From Nanobdellota archaeon (GTDB lineage Archaea; Nanobdellota; Nanobdellia; Woesearchaeales; UBA9642), in contig JBFYMA010000022.1 of the NCBI GenBank assembly GCA_041305085.1, positions 484-64,483 on the forward strand: a DNA stretch of 64,000 nucleotides, in the 5' to 3' direction. The translations under genes were made by a program, and so were the position numbers. The notes below the pieces were generated by a model. It had not been told where the DNA came from. It made no database searches and was given only the letters and a program-made list of their open reading frames with translations. Shown in pieces: positions 37,827 to 53,143 of the stretch; positions within the stretch are counted from its first letter, which is position 1; each line of letters starts with the position of its first letter.

Positions 37827-39144
37827 AATAATCATTGTTGTGTTGGCTCCTGCAAAAGGAATTGGTGGAGGAAACAGAAAATTCAAAATTTATTATGACA
37901 ATTTTGATAAAAAATACTTTAACAAATATTATGTTTTTCTTGACAAAAACCCCAGAGCTTTTAAAAAAAACAAAGACGGTACATTCAACATAGGACTTGA
38001 AAAGTTACAACAATTTTTGGACAAAAAAAAGGCAGATTTTTTTTTTAGTGGGGAAAAAATTCCTGAAAAATTTTATAACGAAATTAAAAAAAAGTGCTTT
38101 TCCATAATTAATGTAAATTTCACATATCTTTATTCTAAAGACTCTAAGGATATAAACATTATCATAAGCAAGACAGACTATTTAAAGATAAAGCTTATTA
38201 ACAAAAAAATCCAGAACGCATATGTAGTATACAATCCCATAGATGTAAAAAAATGGGAATCTTTAAGAAATAATAGTCAAGGAAAGTATAAAAACTATTT
38301 TAAAAACAAAAAAATAAAATTAATTGTTGGTAGACTGGCCAGAGCAGAGCCCAGCAAATGGAATTATTTGATTATTAAAACACTTCTGCAAATGCAAAAA
38401 AGAAAGATATATGATTACGGATTTGTATTTGCAGGCATGACTGCATTATACAGAAAAACATTGCAGCTTTTCTTGGGAAGAAAAATGCTTGAAAACATCC
38501 TGTTTCTTCCCGAACTCAAAAAAGATGAAGACTTATCCAATTTTTATAACTCTATAGATCTTTTTTGGCAAACGTCCTTAATTGGCGAAAGCTTTGGAAA
38601 CGTTATTGCAGAAGCTTTTTACTTCAAGGTTCCAGTAATAACTGATTATAAAAGATTTGTGAGAAAAAATAAAAGAATAGACTTTTGGAGATATGATGCC
38701 CAGATAGAACTGGTGGATGATGGAAAAAATGGAAAATACTGCAACTATCCACAAAAAGTTATACAATTTTTGCAAAATACAAACTCTAAAAAACTTAAAA
38801 AAATGGGGGAAAATGGACTAAAAAAAACAAGATCTAAATATGATGTCAGGGACACATGCAAAACTTTTGCAAAAATATGCTATGAATACCTGAGAAAAGC
38901 CAAAAAAATTCCCAAAGATCCAAAATTTGAAGCCATCAAAAAAAAGCCTTCAGAAAAAGAATTAGATGATTATGAAAAAGAGTATTTTAAGAGAATAAGT
39001 TATGCTGTAAAGATTAACAAAATAAAACAAAACGAAAAAAGGACTTACAAAATCCAGGAATGGTTCTGGAAAAAAATAGAGTTGTTATATGTTGTAGTAA
39101 GAAAAGTTTGCAAAAAGCTCAAAATAGAATTGGAAAAGATGTAA
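37816..39144 (+). CDS. glycosyltransferase family 4 (GT-B) with a C-terminal extension
   Basis: EX7E motif GESFGNVIAEAF. Overlaps the wecB end by 11 nt. Confidence 0.7.
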   Translation: MAVKIIIVVLAPAKGIGGGNRKFKIYYDNFDKKYFNKYYVFLDKNPRAFKKNKDGTFNIGLEKLQQFLDKKKADFFFSGEKIPEKFYNEIKKKCFSIINVNFTYLYSKDSKDINIIISKTDYLKIKLINKKIQNAYVVYNPIDVKKWESLRNNSQGKYKNYFKNKKIKLIVGRLARAEPSKWNYLIIKTLLQMQKRKIYDYGFVFAGMTALYRKTLQLFLGRKMLENILFLPELKKDEDLSNFYNSIDLFWQTSLIGESFGNVIAEAFYFKVPVITDYKRFVRKNKRIDFWRYDAQIELVDDGKNGKYCNYPQKVIQFLQNTNSKKLKKMGENGLKKTRSKYDVRDTCKTFAKICYEYLRKAKKIPKDPKFEAIKKKPSEKELDDYEKEYFKRISYAVKINKIKQNEKRTYKIQEWFWKKIELLYVVVRKVCKKLKIELEKM

Positions 39145-39145
39145 A

Positions 39146-41008
39146 ATGTGTGGAATTTCAGGAATGGTTTTAGGAAATGGACAGGTTTCAGAAGATGTTC
39201 TGGAAGAAAATAACAATATAATGAAGCACAGGGGTCCTGATGATTCAGGAATATGGATTTCTAAAGACAAAAAAACAGGATTTTCCCATTCAAGGCTTTC
39301 AATCGTAGATCTTGATAAGAGATCAAAACAACCAATGATTTTTGAAAATGAAAAAATTGTCATCATTTTCAATGGAGAAATATATAACTATGTTGAGCTA
39401 AGAAAAAAACTTCAAAAAAAATACAAATTCAGAACAACATCTGACACAGAAGTTTTGGGTTATTTGTATATTGAAAAAGGAGTGAAGCTCTTAGACGAGA
39501 TAGAGGGAATGTTTGCATTCGCAATTTATGAGAAAGAACAAAATAAGACTTTTATTGCAAGAGATTTTATAGGACAAAAACCACTCATCTACTGCCAAGA
39601 TAAGGAAGGGTTTTTTTTTGGCTCAGAAATACCTGTCATTCTCAACAGCAACCCTAAACTTGACAAAAAAATTGATTATGGTTCTTTAGGTGTCTTTCTA
39701 ACTCCAAATTTCAGCCACATACCTGCACCATTCACTATCTTCAAAAATATCAAAAAGCTGGAGCCATCACATTACATAATAGTGAAACAAGGAAATATTA
39801 TTGAAAAAAAGCAGTATTACAAACTTCAAAAGAAAAAATTAAAAAAAAGAAACGAAGCTGATTTTATTTGCAGAAAAGTTAACTGGATGAAGCCTCTGGA
39901 CGTCAAATATGCCTCTTTCCTTTCGGGAGGTAATGATTCCTCACTTGTTTGCAGCTGTCTTGAAAAAGAAGCTGAAAAAAAAGTAGAGGTATATACGTTA
40001 AAGGTGGGAAATACTGATAAGGATTTTGAAAGAGCCAAATATGTTGCGAAAACACTGCATTTAAAACACAGCACAACAAATTTTAACTTTGAAAATTTTT
40101 TGAATAGTTTGGAAGACCAGATAAAAAACTTTGGCGAGCCTTATTACCACATCACTTCTGTTTATGCAGACTATATTCTGAATATGGTTGCAAAAAAATA
40201 CAAAGTTTTGTTTTCAGGCGCGGGAGGGGATGAAGTCTATTACGGGTATGACAACATCCAGTTTATTTTGATTGACTTTTTCCTTAAATCAAAAAAAATA
40301 ATTCCAAATTTTTTGTTTAAAGTTTTTCTGCCAAAAAAATATTCCTTTTTGCACGATGCAAACCATCAAAATTTCAAAGAAAAGTATTACAGCCACTGCT
40401 TTAACAGAACAAAAAATATTTTTGATTCTCAAATTGTTTGTAAAAAAACAAAAGAATACCTGAAAAAAATAAGCTCACAAATATTTATTCTCACAGATGC
40501 AAAAAATTATTTGGATATATCATACATGGCAGGAATTTATATAGAAAACAGCCATTCACTCACAATACAAAGCGATCTTGTGGGGATGAAAAACTCTGTG
40601 GAGATAAGATGTCCTTTTTTGGAAAAAAAAGTTATAGAAAGCGGATACAGTCTTCCTTTGCACAAAAAGATAAGTATTTTCAGGATAAGGGAAGGAAAAG
40701 AAGTGATAAAAAAAGCGCTTCTTAAAACTTTTTCAAAAAAATTTGTTTACTCAAAAAAAATTGGTTTTGGAGTGGAGTTCAAAGGACAAAAAAAAATACT
40801 AGAGTTGCATACAAAAAAAATAAGTAAGTACTTGAAAGATTTGGCAAAAAGAAAAGAGTTCAGCAACCTAGAAATAAGCAATATTCTTAAAAGAAAAAAA
40901 GAAAAAAAGTTTATACTTTTGATGAAGCTTTACTGCATCGAGACATGGTTTAAGGAATTTATCGACAAAAAAAATCATGATGTTAATTATTTTTTAGCAC
41001 AAAAATGA
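39146..41008 (+). CDS. asnB: asparagine synthase (glutamine-hydrolysing)-like amidotransferase
   Basis: N-terminal MCGISGMV (Ntn Cys) and PP-loop SGGNDSS. 620 aa. Confidence 0.85.
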   Translation: MCGISGMVLGNGQVSEDVLEENNNIMKHRGPDDSGIWISKDKKTGFSHSRLSIVDLDKRSKQPMIFENEKIVIIFNGEIYNYVELRKKLQKKYKFRTTSDTEVLGYLYIEKGVKLLDEIEGMFAFAIYEKEQNKTFIARDFIGQKPLIYCQDKEGFFFGSEIPVILNSNPKLDKKIDYGSLGVFLTPNFSHIPAPFTIFKNIKKLEPSHYIIVKQGNIIEKKQYYKLQKKKLKKRNEADFICRKVNWMKPLDVKYASFLSGGNDSSLVCSCLEKEAEKKVEVYTLKVGNTDKDFERAKYVAKTLHLKHSTTNFNFENFLNSLEDQIKNFGEPYYHITSVYADYILNMVAKKYKVLFSGAGGDEVYYGYDNIQFILIDFFLKSKKIIPNFLFKVFLPKKYSFLHDANHQNFKEKYYSHCFNRTKNIFDSQIVCKKTKEYLKKISSQIFILTDAKNYLDISYMAGIYIENSHSLTIQSDLVGMKNSVEIRCPFLEKKVIESGYSLPLHKKISIFRIREGKEVIKKALLKTFSKKFVYSKKIGFGVEFKGQKKILELHTKKISKYLKDLAKRKEFSNLEISNILKRKKEKKFILLMKLYCIETWFKEFIDKKNHDVNYFLAQK

Positions 41009-48206: not shown

Positions 48207-50021
48207 GTGATAATTTTGGAAACAGACAAAAAAGAAAACTATGAAGAAAACGATAACATTTACAAGAACGATCTGGACTTTAATGAAGAAGACTATGAAG
48301 TTGATGCAGAAACAATAGAAATAAACGACGATGCTGACTCTCCTGCACAAAAAAAGCAGGAAGAGTCTTCCGCCAATGCAAAAAAAGCTGCAATACAGAG
48401 AGATGATGATAATGAAGAAAAAGACAAGCCAGTTGCTTCTTCCAGGCCTATGAAAAAGGTTTCAAAGCCTATAAAGCCTGTAGTAACAAGAAAAGCAAAG
48501 AAAATTACAAAAAAAACCAATTCAAAGCCTTCAAAAAGCCCAAAAAAGCCAAGCAATTCAAATGGTGAAACAGCAGTATGGCCTTGGATTGTGCTTATCA
48601 TAGTAATAGTGACTGCAGCTGCAGTTCTTATCTGGAGCATTGTTACACATCCACCGCAGCAGCAGACAGCTGGCAATAATACAGTTGTTGCCACAGTGAA
48701 CGGCGAGCAGATAACCCTGGGAGAAATTAATGCCAGATATGACTCTCTGAACCCATTTTACAAGAGCGTAATAACAAAGGAACTGCTTTTAAACCAGTCT
48801 ATAGATGAGTTGCTGCTGCTTCAGGAAGCAGAAAAAGAAGGTTTAACAGCAACAGATCAGGAAGTTGAAGACCTTATAAATTCGATACTTGAGGAAAGCA
48901 ACATGTCCTATGATGATTTTGTTTCAAGGCTTGCATCGCAGGGAATATCCATTGATTATGTAAGGAGTGTATACAAGAATCAGATGATTATAGATAAAGT
49001 CCTTAACCAGACGGTATTTAAAGGTATTGAGGTGTCAGAGCAGGAAATTGAGAATTACTATGAGGAAAACAAGGACCTGTTCACAGGCACGCCTGACCAG
49101 GCAAAGGTAAGGCATATACTGGTTGCCATAGACAACTACACAACTCTTGAACTGGCCTCTGAAAAGATAAATGAGGCAAAAAACAAGTACTTGTCTGAAG
49201 AAGAGGACTTCTGCAGCCTTGTGGCAGAGTATTCTGATGACGCAGGAAGCATTGCCTCATGCGGAGAATACACTTTTCCAAGGGGTCAGATGGTGCCTGA
49301 GTTTGAAAATGCAGCGTTTGAGCTGGAGCCAAACCAGACAGAGATAGTGCAGTCTGTCTACGGCTATCACTTTATAGAAAAACTTGAGGATATTCCAGGA
49401 ACCGTTGCATCGTTTGAGTCCTTGAGGGACCAGATAGAACAGACACTGCTGTACCAGAAGCAGGAAGAATCATATATGAGCTACATAAAAACACTGAGGG
49501 ATTCTTCAGCCATAACTGCCAACTATGATGCTCTGGAAGCTGAGGCTATGGAAGAGCAGGCAGAAACAACAGGAAATGTAGTGACAGAGCCAATAGAGAA
49601 TGTGATTGGTGAAGACCAGGAAACCTCAGACCAGTCCATGCAGGAAGAAAACTCTGTGCAGCAGGAGCAAACATCTGAACAACAAGAAACAATGAATGAG
49701 CAGCAAGAAATACAGGATGAAACACAGAATGAAGATTCTTCAATGATAGAAAATACAGAAGAGCTGAGAACCTGCCTTGCAGCTACAGATGCAGTTTTGT
49801 ATGGTGCATACTGGAAAAAAGAAGTAAAAGAGCAGAAGGATATGCTTGGAGATGTTTTCGATGTGATAGAATATGTTGAGTGCGATCCAAACTATCCTGA
49901 CAGCCAGCCTGAAAAGTGCTCAGAGAAAGAAATAGATGTTTATCCAACATGGATAATAAAAGGGGAAAAATCTGAAGGCAAAAAAACCCTTCAGGAATTG
50001 AAAGAATTGGCTCTTTGCTGA
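48207..50021 (+). CDS. membrane-anchored parvulin-type peptidyl-prolyl isomerase (PrsA/SurA-like) with a C-terminal thioredoxin-like domain
   Basis: Low-complexity acidic/basic N-terminal tail, one TM, SurA-like chaperone region, parvulin core (VRHILV...YGYHFI), an acidic Q/E linker, and a C-terminal YGAYW..YVEC.PNYP..C..YPTWIIKG domain. Confidence 0.75.
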   Translation: MIILETDKKENYEENDNIYKNDLDFNEEDYEVDAETIEINDDADSPAQKKQEESSANAKKAAIQRDDDNEEKDKPVASSRPMKKVSKPIKPVVTRKAKKITKKTNSKPSKSPKKPSNSNGETAVWPWIVLIIVIVTAAAVLIWSIVTHPPQQQTAGNNTVVATVNGEQITLGEINARYDSLNPFYKSVITKELLLNQSIDELLLLQEAEKEGLTATDQEVEDLINSILEESNMSYDDFVSRLASQGISIDYVRSVYKNQMIIDKVLNQTVFKGIEVSEQEIENYYEENKDLFTGTPDQAKVRHILVAIDNYTTLELASEKINEAKNKYLSEEEDFCSLVAEYSDDAGSIASCGEYTFPRGQMVPEFENAAFELEPNQTEIVQSVYGYHFIEKLEDIPGTVASFESLRDQIEQTLLYQKQEESYMSYIKTLRDSSAITANYDALEAEAMEEQAETTGNVVTEPIENVIGEDQETSDQSMQEENSVQQEQTSEQQETMNEQQEIQDETQNEDSSMIENTEELRTCLAATDAVLYGAYWKKEVKEQKDMLGDVFDVIEYVECDPNYPDSQPEKCSEKEIDVYPTWIIKGEKSEGKKTLQELKELALC

Positions 50022-50029
50022 TTTTTTTA

Positions 50030-50265
50030 TTGAAAATTTCGACTAAAAGGTGAAATTTATATGGGTTGAATATCACAGAGTGCAGCAACCTCTGCTGCTC
50101 TGCACCCCTGCCTTCAGGTCGAAATTTTCAATTCCAAAAGTGCGCCTGAGAAGATTGTGAGCCAGTAATATCACAGAGTGATGCCAGCAATCTTTGATTG
50201 CTCTGCACCGCAACCTTTAGGTCGAGGATAGGGCGAACCTATCAGTAATCAGGTGCATTTTTGTT
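50030..50265 (+). repeat. structured intergenic repeat, copy 2 (full composite form)
   Basis: Contains the ttgaaaatttcgac...gtcgaaattttcaa hairpin module and the gtgcgcctgag...atcaggtgcatttttgtt stem-enclosed module. The atatcacagagtg core occurs twice. Confidence 0.8.
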
Positions 50266-50863
50266 ATTTTTTCTTTCCTTTTTTTACCCTGCTAGTAATT
50301 CTGGAAAGCTCGTTAACATTTTCTGTAAATGCAGGCAGCACTTTTGAAAACACTTTTTCCATAGCCTTTATCTCACTTCCGACTTCTAGAATGTTTTTGT
50401 CGTACTCTCCTATTTTGCCAATCACTGCCTGGTGAAGCTTGTCAAAGCTGTCCTTTAAATCGTTGAACTTCTGCTCCAGTGAAGTAATTTTGTTTTCTGT
50501 CTTGTTCTTCCATTCAATAATCTTGTTTATATCCTTTACAAGCTCGTTCCACTTTTCATCAATTATTGCCTCTATAAGGTCTTCGCTTGATCCAAGATCG
50601 TTCATTGTGGGCTGTGGCTGTGGAATGCTCATTGGAGCTGGAGAATCCATTCCTGGAAAACCTCCGAATCCTGCTCCCTGGCTGTGGCTGTGCTGTATTG
50701 ACCCCCCTCCAATATTTTCTGACTGGTCAAGTGCTCCTATGATATCAGAATAAGTATAGCCATCCCTCTGCAGACTCTCAATTATCTGAGTGTTTGAAAG
50801 GCCCTGCGCCTTCATATTTTTTACCTGGTCAACTGGAGGTTTTTTGTTGCCCAAAAATGCCAT
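50264..50863 (-). CDS. hypothetical protein (N-terminal small helical domain, Gly/Pro-rich linker, C-terminal coiled coil)
   Basis: 199-aa ORF. No catalytic motif. Confidence 0.5.
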   Translation of the reverse strand: MAFLGNKKPPVDQVKNMKAQGLSNTQIIESLQRDGYTYSDIIGALDQSENIGGGSIQHSHSQGAGFGGFPGMDSPAPMSIPQPQPTMNDLGSSEDLIEAIIDEKWNELVKDINKIIEWKNKTENKITSLEQKFNDLKDSFDKLHQAVIGKIGEYDKNILEVGSEIKAMEKVFSKVLPAFTENVNELSRITSRVKKGKKK

Positions 50864-50946: not shown

Positions 50947-51303
50947 GTGTTAAACTTGTATCATATAGGAAAAGTGCTGAATGTGCTGAAATCAGGCAAA
51001 GAAGTTGTGAGCTGTGATGACTCTGTCCAGGCAGTTGCAGAAATGTGGGACAAAAACATTCTTACATTCCTGGTCGACCCAAAAATATCTGGGCAGCTAA
51101 AAAAAGCAGACTTTGTTCTTGTTGACTACAAGCCTATTGGTGAAAAGATTCCTGTGCCAAGGCACATTATTGTCAAAATACTCAAAGGAAAGACTGCTGA
51201 AGAGGTCTGGAAAGAATACAAAAAGTATTTTGCAGACAAGCATAAAAAGGCTGCCAACTCCCAGATTCAGCCGCCAACAATGGTGCCCCAGTATCTGGGA
51301 TGA
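50947..51303 (+). CDS. hypothetical protein
   Basis: 118-aa ORF with a basic C-terminus. Confidence 0.45.
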   Translation: MLNLYHIGKVLNVLKSGKEVVSCDDSVQAVAEMWDKNILTFLVDPKISGQLKKADFVLVDYKPIGEKIPVPRHIIVKILKGKTAEEVWKEYKKYFADKHKKAANSQIQPPTMVPQYLG

Positions 51304-51369: not shown

Positions 51370-51966
51370 CTATCTTTCTGTCAGGAAAACGAGTGCAAGA
51401 ATTCCGACTATTAAAAGGAATAGAAGTCCAAGAACTTTTGGATGGAACAGGGTGTTGTAGAGGTTTGTTGTAAAGCTTCCTGTGTCTGTGGATTGGCCCT
51501 CGTTGACATCAACGCTGTTATCAGTGCTGACATCAGAATTTCCATTATTGTTTGTTGAAGTTGAATTTCCTAATCCCTGCTCAAGCGCGCTCTGGCCGAA
51601 GACGCTTCCAAATCCAAACAAAAGAATAATTACAGAAATAGTTATCACCCACATCCTGGCTTTGGGAATAGCACCCATAATGCTGCTGTCTTCTGCGCCG
51701 AAAACCCTGAAAACAAATATTATGAGGAAAACGACAACCACAAGTATTAGGAACCAGGGAACAATAAAATTCACAAACCCCAGTGCAAACTTGCTTGCGA
51801 GCACAAGCACTGCTACAGAAACTGCAACCATTCCGTTAAGCCCTTTTTTTTCTGCACCAAAAGCCTTTGTTTTTTCCAGCAATGCATAGACAATTATCCA
51901 GACCAGTATAAAAGTAAATACTGATCCGAAAAATGAAAAAAGGCTCAGGTCTAAAAGCGTTGCCAT
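51370..51966 (-). CDS. paralogous integral membrane protein A (third of a tandem triplet)
   Basis: 4 predicted TM helices. N-terminal motif ..VFTFILVWIIVYALLEKTKAFGAEKKG is shared with the two upstream paralogs. Thr/Ser/Asn-rich extracytoplasmic loop. Confidence 0.65.
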   Translation of the reverse strand: MATLLDLSLFSFFGSVFTFILVWIIVYALLEKTKAFGAEKKGLNGMVAVSVAVLVLASKFALGFVNFIVPWFLILVVVVFLIIFVFRVFGAEDSSIMGAIPKARMWVITISVIILLFGFGSVFGQSALEQGLGNSTSTNNNGNSDVSTDNSVDVNEGQSTDTGSFTTNLYNTLFHPKVLGLLFLLIVGILALVFLTER

Positions 51967-51968
51967 GT

Positions 51969-52574
51969 TCAGTCCCTTTTTCCTCCTTCCTGAAGCATTT
52001 TTGTAAGTCCCTTTACCCAGCCTTCGCTGTCAGCACCCCTGGGCTTGTCCTCTTTGGTAATAAACCATATCACTATGCCGAAAACAAGAATTGTTATTAC
52101 TGCTGCCTGGGTTGAAGGATCCCTTAAAAATCCAAGCCAGCTTGGCAGGCCAGTCCATCCTGCTTGTGTTGCAAAGATATAAATTACTATTATAAAAGCG
52201 GCCAGAACAATCCATCCTCCAAATGAGTGCTTGGAAATGTCCAGCTCTTTGCCAAAAACACCAATAAGCAATAGAACCATTAGTATGGCAACTATTATCA
52301 GGGAAATGTTTGGCAAAGCGCCATTTATTATCTCAACAATGTCAAACCTTCCATAGCTTCCTGTAACGTGCGGAATTACAACTGCAAGCGCCATCACAAG
52401 GGAAACAATAACATTGAAATTCTTTTTTGGCCTGCCGTCAGGCTCTTTTCCGAGAATTTTTGCCTTTTGCAGCACAGCAAAAACCAGTGTGAATATAAGT
52501 ATGAACGGGAGTATTACATCTACCAACCCTATATTCTCAAGCGACCTAAGCGCGTTTTCAAAAAAGCTCATCAA
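51969..52574 (-). CDS. paralogous integral membrane protein B (second of the triplet)
   Basis: IGLVDVILPFILIFTLVFAVLQKAKILGKEPDG N-terminal motif. 4 TM. 2-nt spacer to paralog A. Confidence 0.65.
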   Translation of the reverse strand: MMSFFENALRSLENIGLVDVILPFILIFTLVFAVLQKAKILGKEPDGRPKKNFNVIVSLVMALAVVIPHVTGSYGRFDIVEIINGALPNISLIIVAILMVLLLIGVFGKELDISKHSFGGWIVLAAFIIVIYIFATQAGWTGLPSWLGFLRDPSTQAAVITILVFGIVIWFITKEDKPRGADSEGWVKGLTKMLQEGGKRD

Positions 52575-53143
52575 CCATCACCCTCTTCTGTTTTTTTATC
52601 CTTTGAGGCAGCTCTGTCTCTTGTTACGTAAAACATAAAACCTACAATCAAAGCTACGAGTATTATTCCTGAAACAACATTGGTGTTCCAGTTGTTCTTC
52701 AAAAAGTTGTAAATATTGTCTAGCCAGCCAAGGCTGTACAGGAATATGAGTATTATTCCTATGAACATAATTACCATGAATACTGTCTTCCAGGGACCTT
52801 TGAGATAAAATTCCTTGTCTCCAGAGTGGAAGCTTCCGACAAGAAGCATGAATCCTATTGACAGGAGCAAAAGCAGGATTATGTAGGAAAGAGTTTCGTT
52901 CATGACTTTGACAACTTGGGCGCTTCCAACCACGAAAAAAGCAACCACAAAGCTGGTCATGCTGTTGAGGTTTTTCCTTGTAACCATGTTTCCCTTATCA
53001 TTTTTTTCAAGCCCGTAAATCTTGGTTTTTTCAAGAATTGCAAATGTGAGTGTGAATGAAAGCAGGAATGGAAGAACTACATCGTATATTCCTATATCAT
53101 TGAAAAAACCCAGTGTTCCCCTGAATACAGATTCCTCTGCCAT
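52571..53143 (-). CDS. paralogous integral membrane protein C (first of the triplet)
   Basis: IGIYDVVLPFLLSFTLTFAILEKTKIYGLEKN N-terminal motif. 4 TM. ATGA overlap with paralog B. Confidence 0.65.
   Translation of the reverse strand: MAEESVFRGTLGFFNDIGIYDVVLPFLLSFTLTFAILEKTKIYGLEKNDKGNMVTRKNLNSMTSFVVAFFVVGSAQVVKVMNETLSYIILLLLLSIGFMLLVGSFHSGDKEFYLKGPWKTVFMVIMFIGIILIFLYSLGWLDNIYNFLKNNWNTNVVSGIILVALIVGFMFYVTRDRAASKDKKTEEGDG

Follow-up and report, generated by a model that had tools for sequence, protein, structure and literature searches.

What do three adjacent genes for related membrane proteins contribute to the life of a Nanobdellota archaeon, and which other proteins do they serve? The question is raised by a 64,000-nucleotide stretch of contig JBFYMA010000022.1 (assembly GCA_041305085.1, positions 484 to 64,483 of the forward strand), called the window below, in which three paralogs that we name c1, c2 and c3 follow one another on the minus strand (coordinates in Table 1). 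Woesearchaeota and their relatives are abundant, uncultivated archaea with reduced genomes that are thought to depend on other cells. The comparative signal for the three genes is strong, and what can be said of their function comes from genomic context. We conclude that they represent an old and fixed triplication in a large, uncharacterised family, and that the proteins may be new membrane subunits for a type-IV-filament-like system, with a minority chance that they belong to something more unusual.

The first-pass annotation of this DNA described three consecutive, tightly spaced tandem genes for paralogous membrane proteins, which both the open reading frames (ORFs) and full-length profile homology bear out. 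The 2-nt spacing that it gave for c2 and c3 can be read directly from the junction (TGA-ac-ATG). In contrast, the ATGA overlap that it gave for c1 and c2 had to be corrected: the junction reads GGT-TGA-TGA-GC, where the TGA stop of c1 and the ATG of c2 share 1 nt (TGATG). An overlap of 4 nt arises only with an alternative TTG start of c2 at 52574, which yields 201 amino acids (aa; ORF 51969-52574); the database protein P0001 begins at the next codon, an ATG. Upstream of c2 and c3 are GGTGAT and GGAGG-like motifs. The TATA-box-like element TTTATATATAAA upstream of the c1 start codon suggests that c1-c2-c3 form a single leaderless or near-leaderless archaeal transcript, with this element as its putative promoter.

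The homology of c1, c2 and c3 extends over their full length, far beyond chance. By BLASTP, c1 and c2 are 31% identical (E 7e-21), and c3 aligns with c1 and c2 over the N-terminal helix only (E 5e-5 and 1e-4, respectively). For each copy, 75-79 orthologs were combined into a profile, and the profiles aligned from end to end, at 99.9% for c1-c2 (E 7e-33), 99.3% for c1-c3 (E 5e-20) and 98.8% for c2-c3 (E 1e-16), while control profiles of another polytopic protein and of a coiled-coil protein from the same cluster reached at most 2% with the c genes. The shared N-terminal signature already noticed in the window was recovered in all three paralogs as G..DV.LPF.L.FT..FA.L.KTK..G; an Asp residue of this signature, in the first transmembrane (TM) helix, is present in c1 and c2 and not in c3. 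Each copy forms an ortholog group of its own with its own level of conservation, the mean pairwise identity of orthologs being 38% for c3 versus approximately 50% for c1 and c2. The three proteins are anciently diverged paralogs.

The family is large. At a threshold of E ≤ 1e-3, and counting representatives of clusters at 50% identity, a profile search returned 3365 members, 1979 of them at 1e-10 or better; the best 150 of the 3365 are all stand-alone proteins of 180-240 aa. Word searches found 613 homologs for c2 (E ≤ 1e-3) and 54 for c3, and a relative of the family occurs in at least 249 species-level genomes. All source names that identify an organism are Woesearchaeota, Nanoarchaeota or Nanoarchaeia; by its named sources, the family is restricted to the Woesearchaeota/Nanoarchaeota (DPANN archaea). 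A cluster of the Woesearchaeota type, at 50-58% identity, is also carried by approximately 25 GenBank records titled “uncultured Methanosarcinales archaeon” (loci L005, L007, L010-L012, L016, L017, L026 and others in our numbering), and by one record each titled “Alphaproteobacteria bacterium” (L032) and “Methanobacteriota archaeon” (L075). These contigs are probably mislabelled or mis-binned.

The arrangement of the genes is equally constant. Whether homologous triplets recur in related genomes was a point raised by the first-pass annotation, and they do: the order c1-c2-c3 on one strand was found in 82 of 82 species-level genome loci, usually flanked by the coiled-coil proteins, ATPase and polytopic partner described below. 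Of 32 independent metagenome loci, 26 show it as well, the remainder being truncated or having an extra copy. A fourth gene is present in some lineages, either an additional c2 (L040, 2228-3383; L124, 1395-2414; L161, 3318-4706) or an additional c1-like copy (L152, 3880-4958), so that the trio appears able to expand occasionally.

No known family or fold accounts for these proteins. The first-pass annotation could not place them, and nothing in Pfam, NCBIfam, PADLOC, PHROGs, the PDB sequences or the fold libraries changes that; a match to a well-characterised transporter subunit family was looked for as well, and none rose above threshold. With c1-c3 of the window, Pfam and NCBIfam gave only sub-threshold matches to unrelated TM families, and Pfam searches with 142, 26 and 48 individual family members gave no recurrent family. 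There was no meaningful match for c1-c3 in PADLOC or PHROGs, i.e., none to defence or phage families, and no match in PDB sequence searches with the family profiles. Foldseek comparison of the c1 model with PDB and BFVD returned best E values above 1 and TM-scores of at most 0.30; no solved transporter was matched (best Foldseek E 1.4, TM-score below 0.25). No description of the family was found in the literature searched. The c1-c3 family is uncharacterised and lies outside all the libraries searched.

Several candidates were considered individually. The sole Pfam score above a curated cutoff was that of TMEM127 (PF20517) with the c1 ortholog of L005 (32.2 bits, cutoff 25.3), in which residues 121-179 (TM4-loop-TM5) align with profile positions 18-74 of 113. 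The TMEM127 match occurs in 8 of 48 c1 orthologs, in none of 26 c2 orthologs and in no c3, and the c1 protein of the window does not have it. It covers only half of the profile, a two-helix hairpin, and the similarity is most likely compositional or convergent. The N-terminal domain of ComEC (DUF4131, PF13567) scored 13.7-21.8 bits against a gathering cutoff of 31.6, over TM helices only and in 4 of 142 members at E ≤ 0.01. The first-pass annotation had judged that the N termini fit neither Yip1 nor the class III signal-peptide pilins, and the searches and the topology agree. Yip1 gave no match at E ≤ 1 with the window proteins and is not among the 25 most frequent families of the 142 members, and Class_IIIsignal gave no match at E ≤ 1 with the window c proteins or among the 142 members. 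In addition, the N termini are acidic or neutral (mean number of Lys plus Arg residues, K+R, at most 1.5), they have no [KR]-G leader, and the proteins have five TM helices with the N terminus predicted outside. A relationship to the A24 prepilin peptidases was likewise discarded, as Peptidase_A24 gave no match at E ≤ 1 with the window proteins and none in the 25 families shown for the 142 members, and the consensus sequences of the c proteins contain no conserved GxGD motif. Finally, an origin from T2SSF platform proteins was rejected: no T2SSF match was found in Pfam, and hhalign comparison with the 744-aa polytopic protein encoded in the same cluster gave 0.2-2%.

The first-pass annotation counted about four TM helices per protein. 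Hydropathy analysis and AlphaFold modelling indicate five, preceded by an N-terminal amphipathic helix. The c1 model, built on an alignment of 67 sequences, has a predicted local distance difference test score (pLDDT) of 78.7 and a predicted TM-score (pTM) of 0.58. Its elements are, in order, the amphipathic helix, TM1, a beta-hairpin (residues 45-55), a TM2-TM3 helical hairpin, TM4, a short loop helix and TM5, with helices at residues 2-17, 19-40, 57-73, 75-104, 118-137 and 154-180. The c2 model (26 sequences, pLDDT 64.5) was too poor for use. In the orthologs, K+R totals are 9.8, 10.9 and 5.3 for c1, c2 and c3 over loop 1, loop 3 and the C terminus, the segments proposed to be inside, compared with 2.5, 2.0 and 1.5 over the N terminus, loop 2 and loop 4, proposed to be outside. 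This excess supports an orientation in which the N terminus of each protein is outside and the C terminus inside.

Each copy has surface features of its own on this predicted topology. The Thr/Ser/Asn-rich insert of c3, described as extracytoplasmic by the first-pass annotation, is indeed placed outside by the positive-inside count. It is kept in c3 orthologs as a T/G/S/D/N-rich loop 4 with a mean length of 45 aa and a net charge of -4, and in the window protein it contains one N-x-S/T sequon, at N134. In c2, it is outside loop 2 that is conserved, with the invariant residues P67, H68, N83 and P87. Loop 1 of the c proteins, predicted to be cytoplasmic, is lysine rich and forms a beta-hairpin after a conserved EKTK..G motif.

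With what are these membrane proteins associated? The usual layout downstream of the trio comprises a gene for a coiled-coil protein, cc199, on the opposite strand, then a second coiled-coil protein of approximately 148 aa (cc148), a 771-aa ATPase and a 744-aa polytopic protein. Of the 46 loci anchored on the trio whose downstream flank reached 7 kb or more, 42 contained cc199, 33 cc148 and 31 the ATPase, which makes cc199 the most constant neighbour of the trio. The association was also found in the reverse direction. Among 80 metagenome loci anchored on the ATPase, 33 had at least 5.5 kb of upstream sequence; cc148 was present in 30 of these, cc199 in 28 and c genes in 25 (at least three of them in 24). 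The 744-aa partner follows the ATPase in 43/46 ATPase-anchored loci.

The ATPase is related to the motors of type IV filament systems. It matches the Pfam family T2SSE (3.8e-11), and its best relatives of solved structure are GspE of A. fulgidus (2oap, 2e-26), CpaF (7e-20) and FlaI (2e-17); this GspE/PilB/FlaI-family ATPase, a criterion of a type IV filament system, was found in related loci only. It is unusually long, at approximately 770 aa (e.g., L001:2831-5146, minus strand), with approximately 300 N-terminal and 130 C-terminal residues beyond the region aligned to the GspE, CpaF and FlaI structures, and its orthologs share a mean pairwise identity of 62%. For the 744-aa partner, no PDB sequence match was obtained, and a search for an internal duplication detected no repeat.

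The coiled-coil proteins gave generic coiled-coil matches only. cc199 has 1400 homologs, the named ones all from Woesearchaeota or Nanoarchaeota, and in it a linker rich in Pro, Gly and Gln joins a small helical domain at the N terminus to a conserved helical or coiled-coil C terminus of approximately 100 aa. Its residues 95-176 matched the coiled-coil tail of ZorA in PADLOC (E 4e-5) and a phage short tail fibre in PDB (E 0.0017). ZorA is a MotA/ExbB-like protein of the Zorya defence system; both matches most likely reflect generic coiled-coil similarity. In approximately 15 loci (L026, L036, L037, L053, L062, L067, L071, L072, L083 and others), a gene for a 451-aa P-loop protein is inserted between cc199 and cc148. 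From its own sequence this protein looks like a HerA/DUF87-type ATPase, for which it is a candidate.

The reading that we favour, tentatively and at slightly less than an even chance, is that c1-c3 together form a hetero-oligomer that serves as membrane scaffold in a type-IV-filament-like machine peculiar to this lineage. A gene order kept fixed over an order-level radiation, with a separate rate and separate conserved surface features for each copy, is what would be expected of non-redundant subunits of a hetero-oligomer, and c1-c3 most likely assemble in this manner. The two-way association with the ATPase, its polytopic partner and the two coiled-coil proteins points to a scaffold in a type-IV-filament-like machine. 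The three proteins would be made from one operon and would assemble as one complex in the cytoplasmic membrane, serving as a membrane-embedded, collar- or stator-like scaffold for a motor composed of the GspE/CpaF/FlaI-family ATPase and a FlaJ/TadC-like polytopic partner. The Lys-rich cytoplasmic loop 1 and the charged C-terminal tails could dock cc199 and cc148, and these two would make the connection to the ATPase. Outside, the conserved loop of c2 and the flexible loop of c3, rich in Thr, Ser and Gly, may face the envelope or the base of the filament. The analysis establishes the paralogy, the predicted topology, the constant gene order, the clustering with the neighbouring genes and the lack of a known family; the hetero-oligomer, its contacts with the coiled-coil proteins and the motor, and the scaffold role are inferred.

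Several observations weigh against this reading. The functional evidence is gene neighbourhood throughout, and among close relatives the genes for aspartyl-tRNA synthetase (AspRS), translin and a metallo-beta-lactamase (MBL) hydrolase equal the ATPase in their synteny with the trio, AspRS lying near the trio in 38 of 46 close loci. Since housekeeping genes are equally syntenic, the trio-ATPase association partly reflects inheritance of gene order. Similarity of the 744-aa partner to T2SSF is weak, appearing in 5 of 25 members with a best E of 1e-4 and staying under the Pfam cutoff, and confidence in the monomer models is no more than moderate (pLDDT 64.5 and 78.7). Pilin-like genes are almost never found in the cluster (2/57 loci in a strict scan). 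In favour of the reading, the partner gene of L003 and L013 is directly bordered by canonical class III pilins (MRKGQFALEF...), and the strict scan located pilin-like ORFs within 3 kb beyond the partner gene in L152 and L154. Lastly, the 64-kb window itself contains no ATPase, 744-aa partner, cc148 or pilin-like gene. In its clade (L005-L009, L012, L019, L024, L029, L164), a membrane-anchored peptidyl-prolyl isomerase (PPIase) or other genes occupy the position of the ATPase, and c1-c3 and cc199 are well conserved despite the absence of an adjacent ATPase.

The first alternative is a serious rival, although less likely than the favoured reading: the trio and cc199 would form an autonomous membrane or cytoskeletal module, e.g., for envelope organisation, cell shape, division or membrane-protein biogenesis, next to which the ATPase lies by inherited order. 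The tightness of the cc199 linkage argues for it, as does the window clade, where cc199 stays beside the trio though cc148, the ATPase and the partner are gone from the neighbourhood and where the next gene encodes a PPIase of the extracytoplasmic foldase type; the housekeeping synteny among close relatives, equal to that of the ATPase, can be read in the same way. Nevertheless, divergent lineages keep the block formed by the c genes, the coiled-coil genes, the ATPase and its partner after synteny with housekeeping genes has decayed. At approximately 40% median c2 identity the c-cc-ATPase block is kept, whereas AspRS is nearby in 3 of 11 loci only. The block also survives rearrangement, because in L001, L003 and L013 the ATPase-partner pair has shifted to the other flank of the trio and is still adjacent to it, and 76-81% of the ATPase-anchored loci have the trio.

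The near absence of pilins (2/57 loci), together with the lack of a known fold in c1-c3, leaves room for a second possibility, which we regard as improbable. The seven-gene block (c1-c2-c3, the two coiled-coil proteins, the ATPase with its approximately 300 extra N-terminal residues and the 744-aa polytopic partner) could be, instead of an ordinary pilus, a new machine that reuses a GspE/FlaI-type motor and in which c1-c2-c3 would be the working membrane part, e.g., a conduit or an anchoring ring for exchange with or attachment to a host.

It is distinctly improbable that c1-c3 form a heteromeric channel or transporter of approximately 15 TM helices for ions, nutrients or DNA, with or without coupling to the neighbouring ATPase. 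The polar and helix-breaking residues conserved within TM1 (D, P and T of DV.LPF.L.FT) would suit such a function, and scattered sub-threshold Pfam matches to DUF4131 (at most 21.8 bits, cutoff 31.6), Gate and Na_Ca_ex could be taken as a hint of it. However, none of these matches is consistent across orthologs (DUF4131 in 4/142, Gate in 5/26), no solved transporter gave a fold match, the TM1 Asp is not found in c3, and the conserved block includes no substrate-binding or ABC-type genes.

The first-pass annotation proposed a diverging accessory locus for surface, transport or phage-interaction functions. Tandem paralogy and the variable low-complexity extracellular loop of c3 are what one might expect of redundant paralogs diverging at a variable locus of this type, but the proposal does not hold up well and is very unlikely. 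Copy number and order are fixed in all sampled species (82/82 genome loci, with the same order in 26/32 metagenome loci), each copy has its separate ortholog group, searches for defence and phage families gave nothing in PADLOC and nothing meaningful in PHROGs, and the trio is embedded among housekeeping genes. It is scarcely credible that c1-c3 act in the neighbouring filament system as non-canonical pilins or as a protease resembling prepilin peptidase, since the adjoining pilus-type ATPase in relatives, a conserved Gly before a hydrophobic helix and the Asp with which TM1 begins in c1 and c2 are outweighed by a predicted N-out, five-TM topology opposite to that of pilins, by the absence of a [KR]-G leader, of Class_IIIsignal or Peptidase_A24 matches and of a conserved GxGD motif, and by the lack of the Asp in c3.

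The surroundings of the trio in the window (Table 1) show what its own clade has in place of the motor genes. In the window, cc199 and the trio share one strand, with a separate TATA-like element for cc199. Adjoining cc199, where other lineages have cc148, the ATPase and the partner, is the gene for the 604-aa SurA_N/PPIC protein, which occupies this position also in L006, L008/L164, L012, L019, L024 and L029. The closest large contig, SURF_58 (L008/L164), has the layout of the window, as do several other loci. The 118-aa ORF has been kept at its position in the closest relatives of the window only, with 57% identity in L008 and a 108-aa gene in L164; its membership in the system is doubtful.

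Table 1. Coordinates of the trio and of neighbouring features in the window.
Feature	Position	Strand	Basis
c1, first paralog, 190 aa	52571..53143	-	ORF listing
c2, second paralog, 200 aa from the ATG at 52571	51969..52571	-	ORF listing and junction reading
c3, third and most divergent paralog, 198 aa	51370..51966	-	ORF listing
Thr/Ser/Asn/Gly/Asp-rich low-complexity loop of c3, predicted outside (residues 125-172, TM4-TM5)	51451..51594	-	Composition and positive-inside count
TATA-box-like element TTTATATATAAA	53163..53174	-	Centre approximately 25 nt upstream of the c1 ATG, read from sequence
118-aa ORF, convergent with c3, between c3 and cc199	50947..51303	+	ORF; no family match
cc199, candidate cytoplasmic partner	50264..50863	-	ORF and homologs in trio loci
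604-aa PPIase: acidic/Lys-rich N terminus, one TM anchor, SurA_N and PPIC rotamase, Cys-rich C terminus	48207-50021	+	

Elsewhere, the window has a mean G+C content of approximately 39% and an archaeal gene set that includes a KH-domain protein, an Lrp/AsnC regulator and a P-type ATPase. Between positions 38001 and 40000 the G+C content drops to 0.30, compared with approximately 0.39-0.41 elsewhere. Next to this segment is an asparagine-synthase-like gene (39146-41008), and the segment may be an island that is foreign or related to glycans. No tRNA genes were detected by ARAGORN across the 64 kb.

This analysis delineates a large family of membrane proteins (3365 clusters at 50% identity) with no match in the family libraries, structures or literature searched. 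If the link between the trio and the motor is functional, the family would supply missing, lineage-specific membrane components for an archaeal type-IV-filament-like machine. If the trio works with cc199 alone, it would represent a new conserved envelope module of the lineage.

How does the trio compare with known systems? The genuine pilins of the lineage begin with MRKGQFALEF..., and the N termini of c1-c3 are unlike this sequence. The eukaryotic tetraspan membrane protein TMEM127 shows a partial, two-helix likeness to some c1 orthologs only. The T2SSF platform proteins (GspF/PilC/FlaJ/TadB-TadC) are polytopic, as are c1-c3, and in Tad systems the platform is split into two smaller paralogous proteins; the profiles of c1-c3, in contrast, score at most 2% with the 744-aa partner.

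In role, although not in sequence or fold, the proposed scaffold resembles PilM-PilN-PilO, GspL-GspM, and ArlX or ArlC/D/E and ArlF/G. The PilMNO, GspLM and archaellum scaffolds are non-catalytic inner-membrane and cytoplasmic parts, with genes adjacent to those of the motor, that hold the ATPase and the platform and link them to the envelope, and PilN/PilO and GspL/GspM are paralogous pairs that form heteromers. They are bitopic proteins with one TM helix and globular domains in the periplasm or cytoplasm, whereas c1-c3 are polytopic (five TM helices) and have almost no soluble domain. Pfam, PDB profile and Foldseek searches showed no sequence or fold similarity between c1-c3 and these scaffolds.

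Woesearchaeota and Nanoarchaeota lineages were barely sampled in 2016. In that year, Makarova et al. (PMC4858521) described lineage-specific membrane and coiled-coil proteins in archaeal type IV pilus (T4P) loci, such as the membrane proteins arCOG07264/07329 and arCOG10497/10500 and the coiled-coil protein arCOG07564 of clade 4F, as well as a nanoarchaeal ATPase without identifiable cognate pilins. The c family differs from these arCOGs in being a fixed trio of five-TM paralogs, restricted to the Woesearchaeota and Nanoarchaeota, and it is likened to them by gene context, not by sequence. Like the trio and its coiled-coil neighbours, the arCOG proteins of the T4P loci are uncharacterised, have as neighbours a VirB11/GspE-family ATPase and a FlaJ/TadC-like protein (near the trio, the weakly T2SSF-like 744-aa partner), and owe their proposed role to this neighbourhood.

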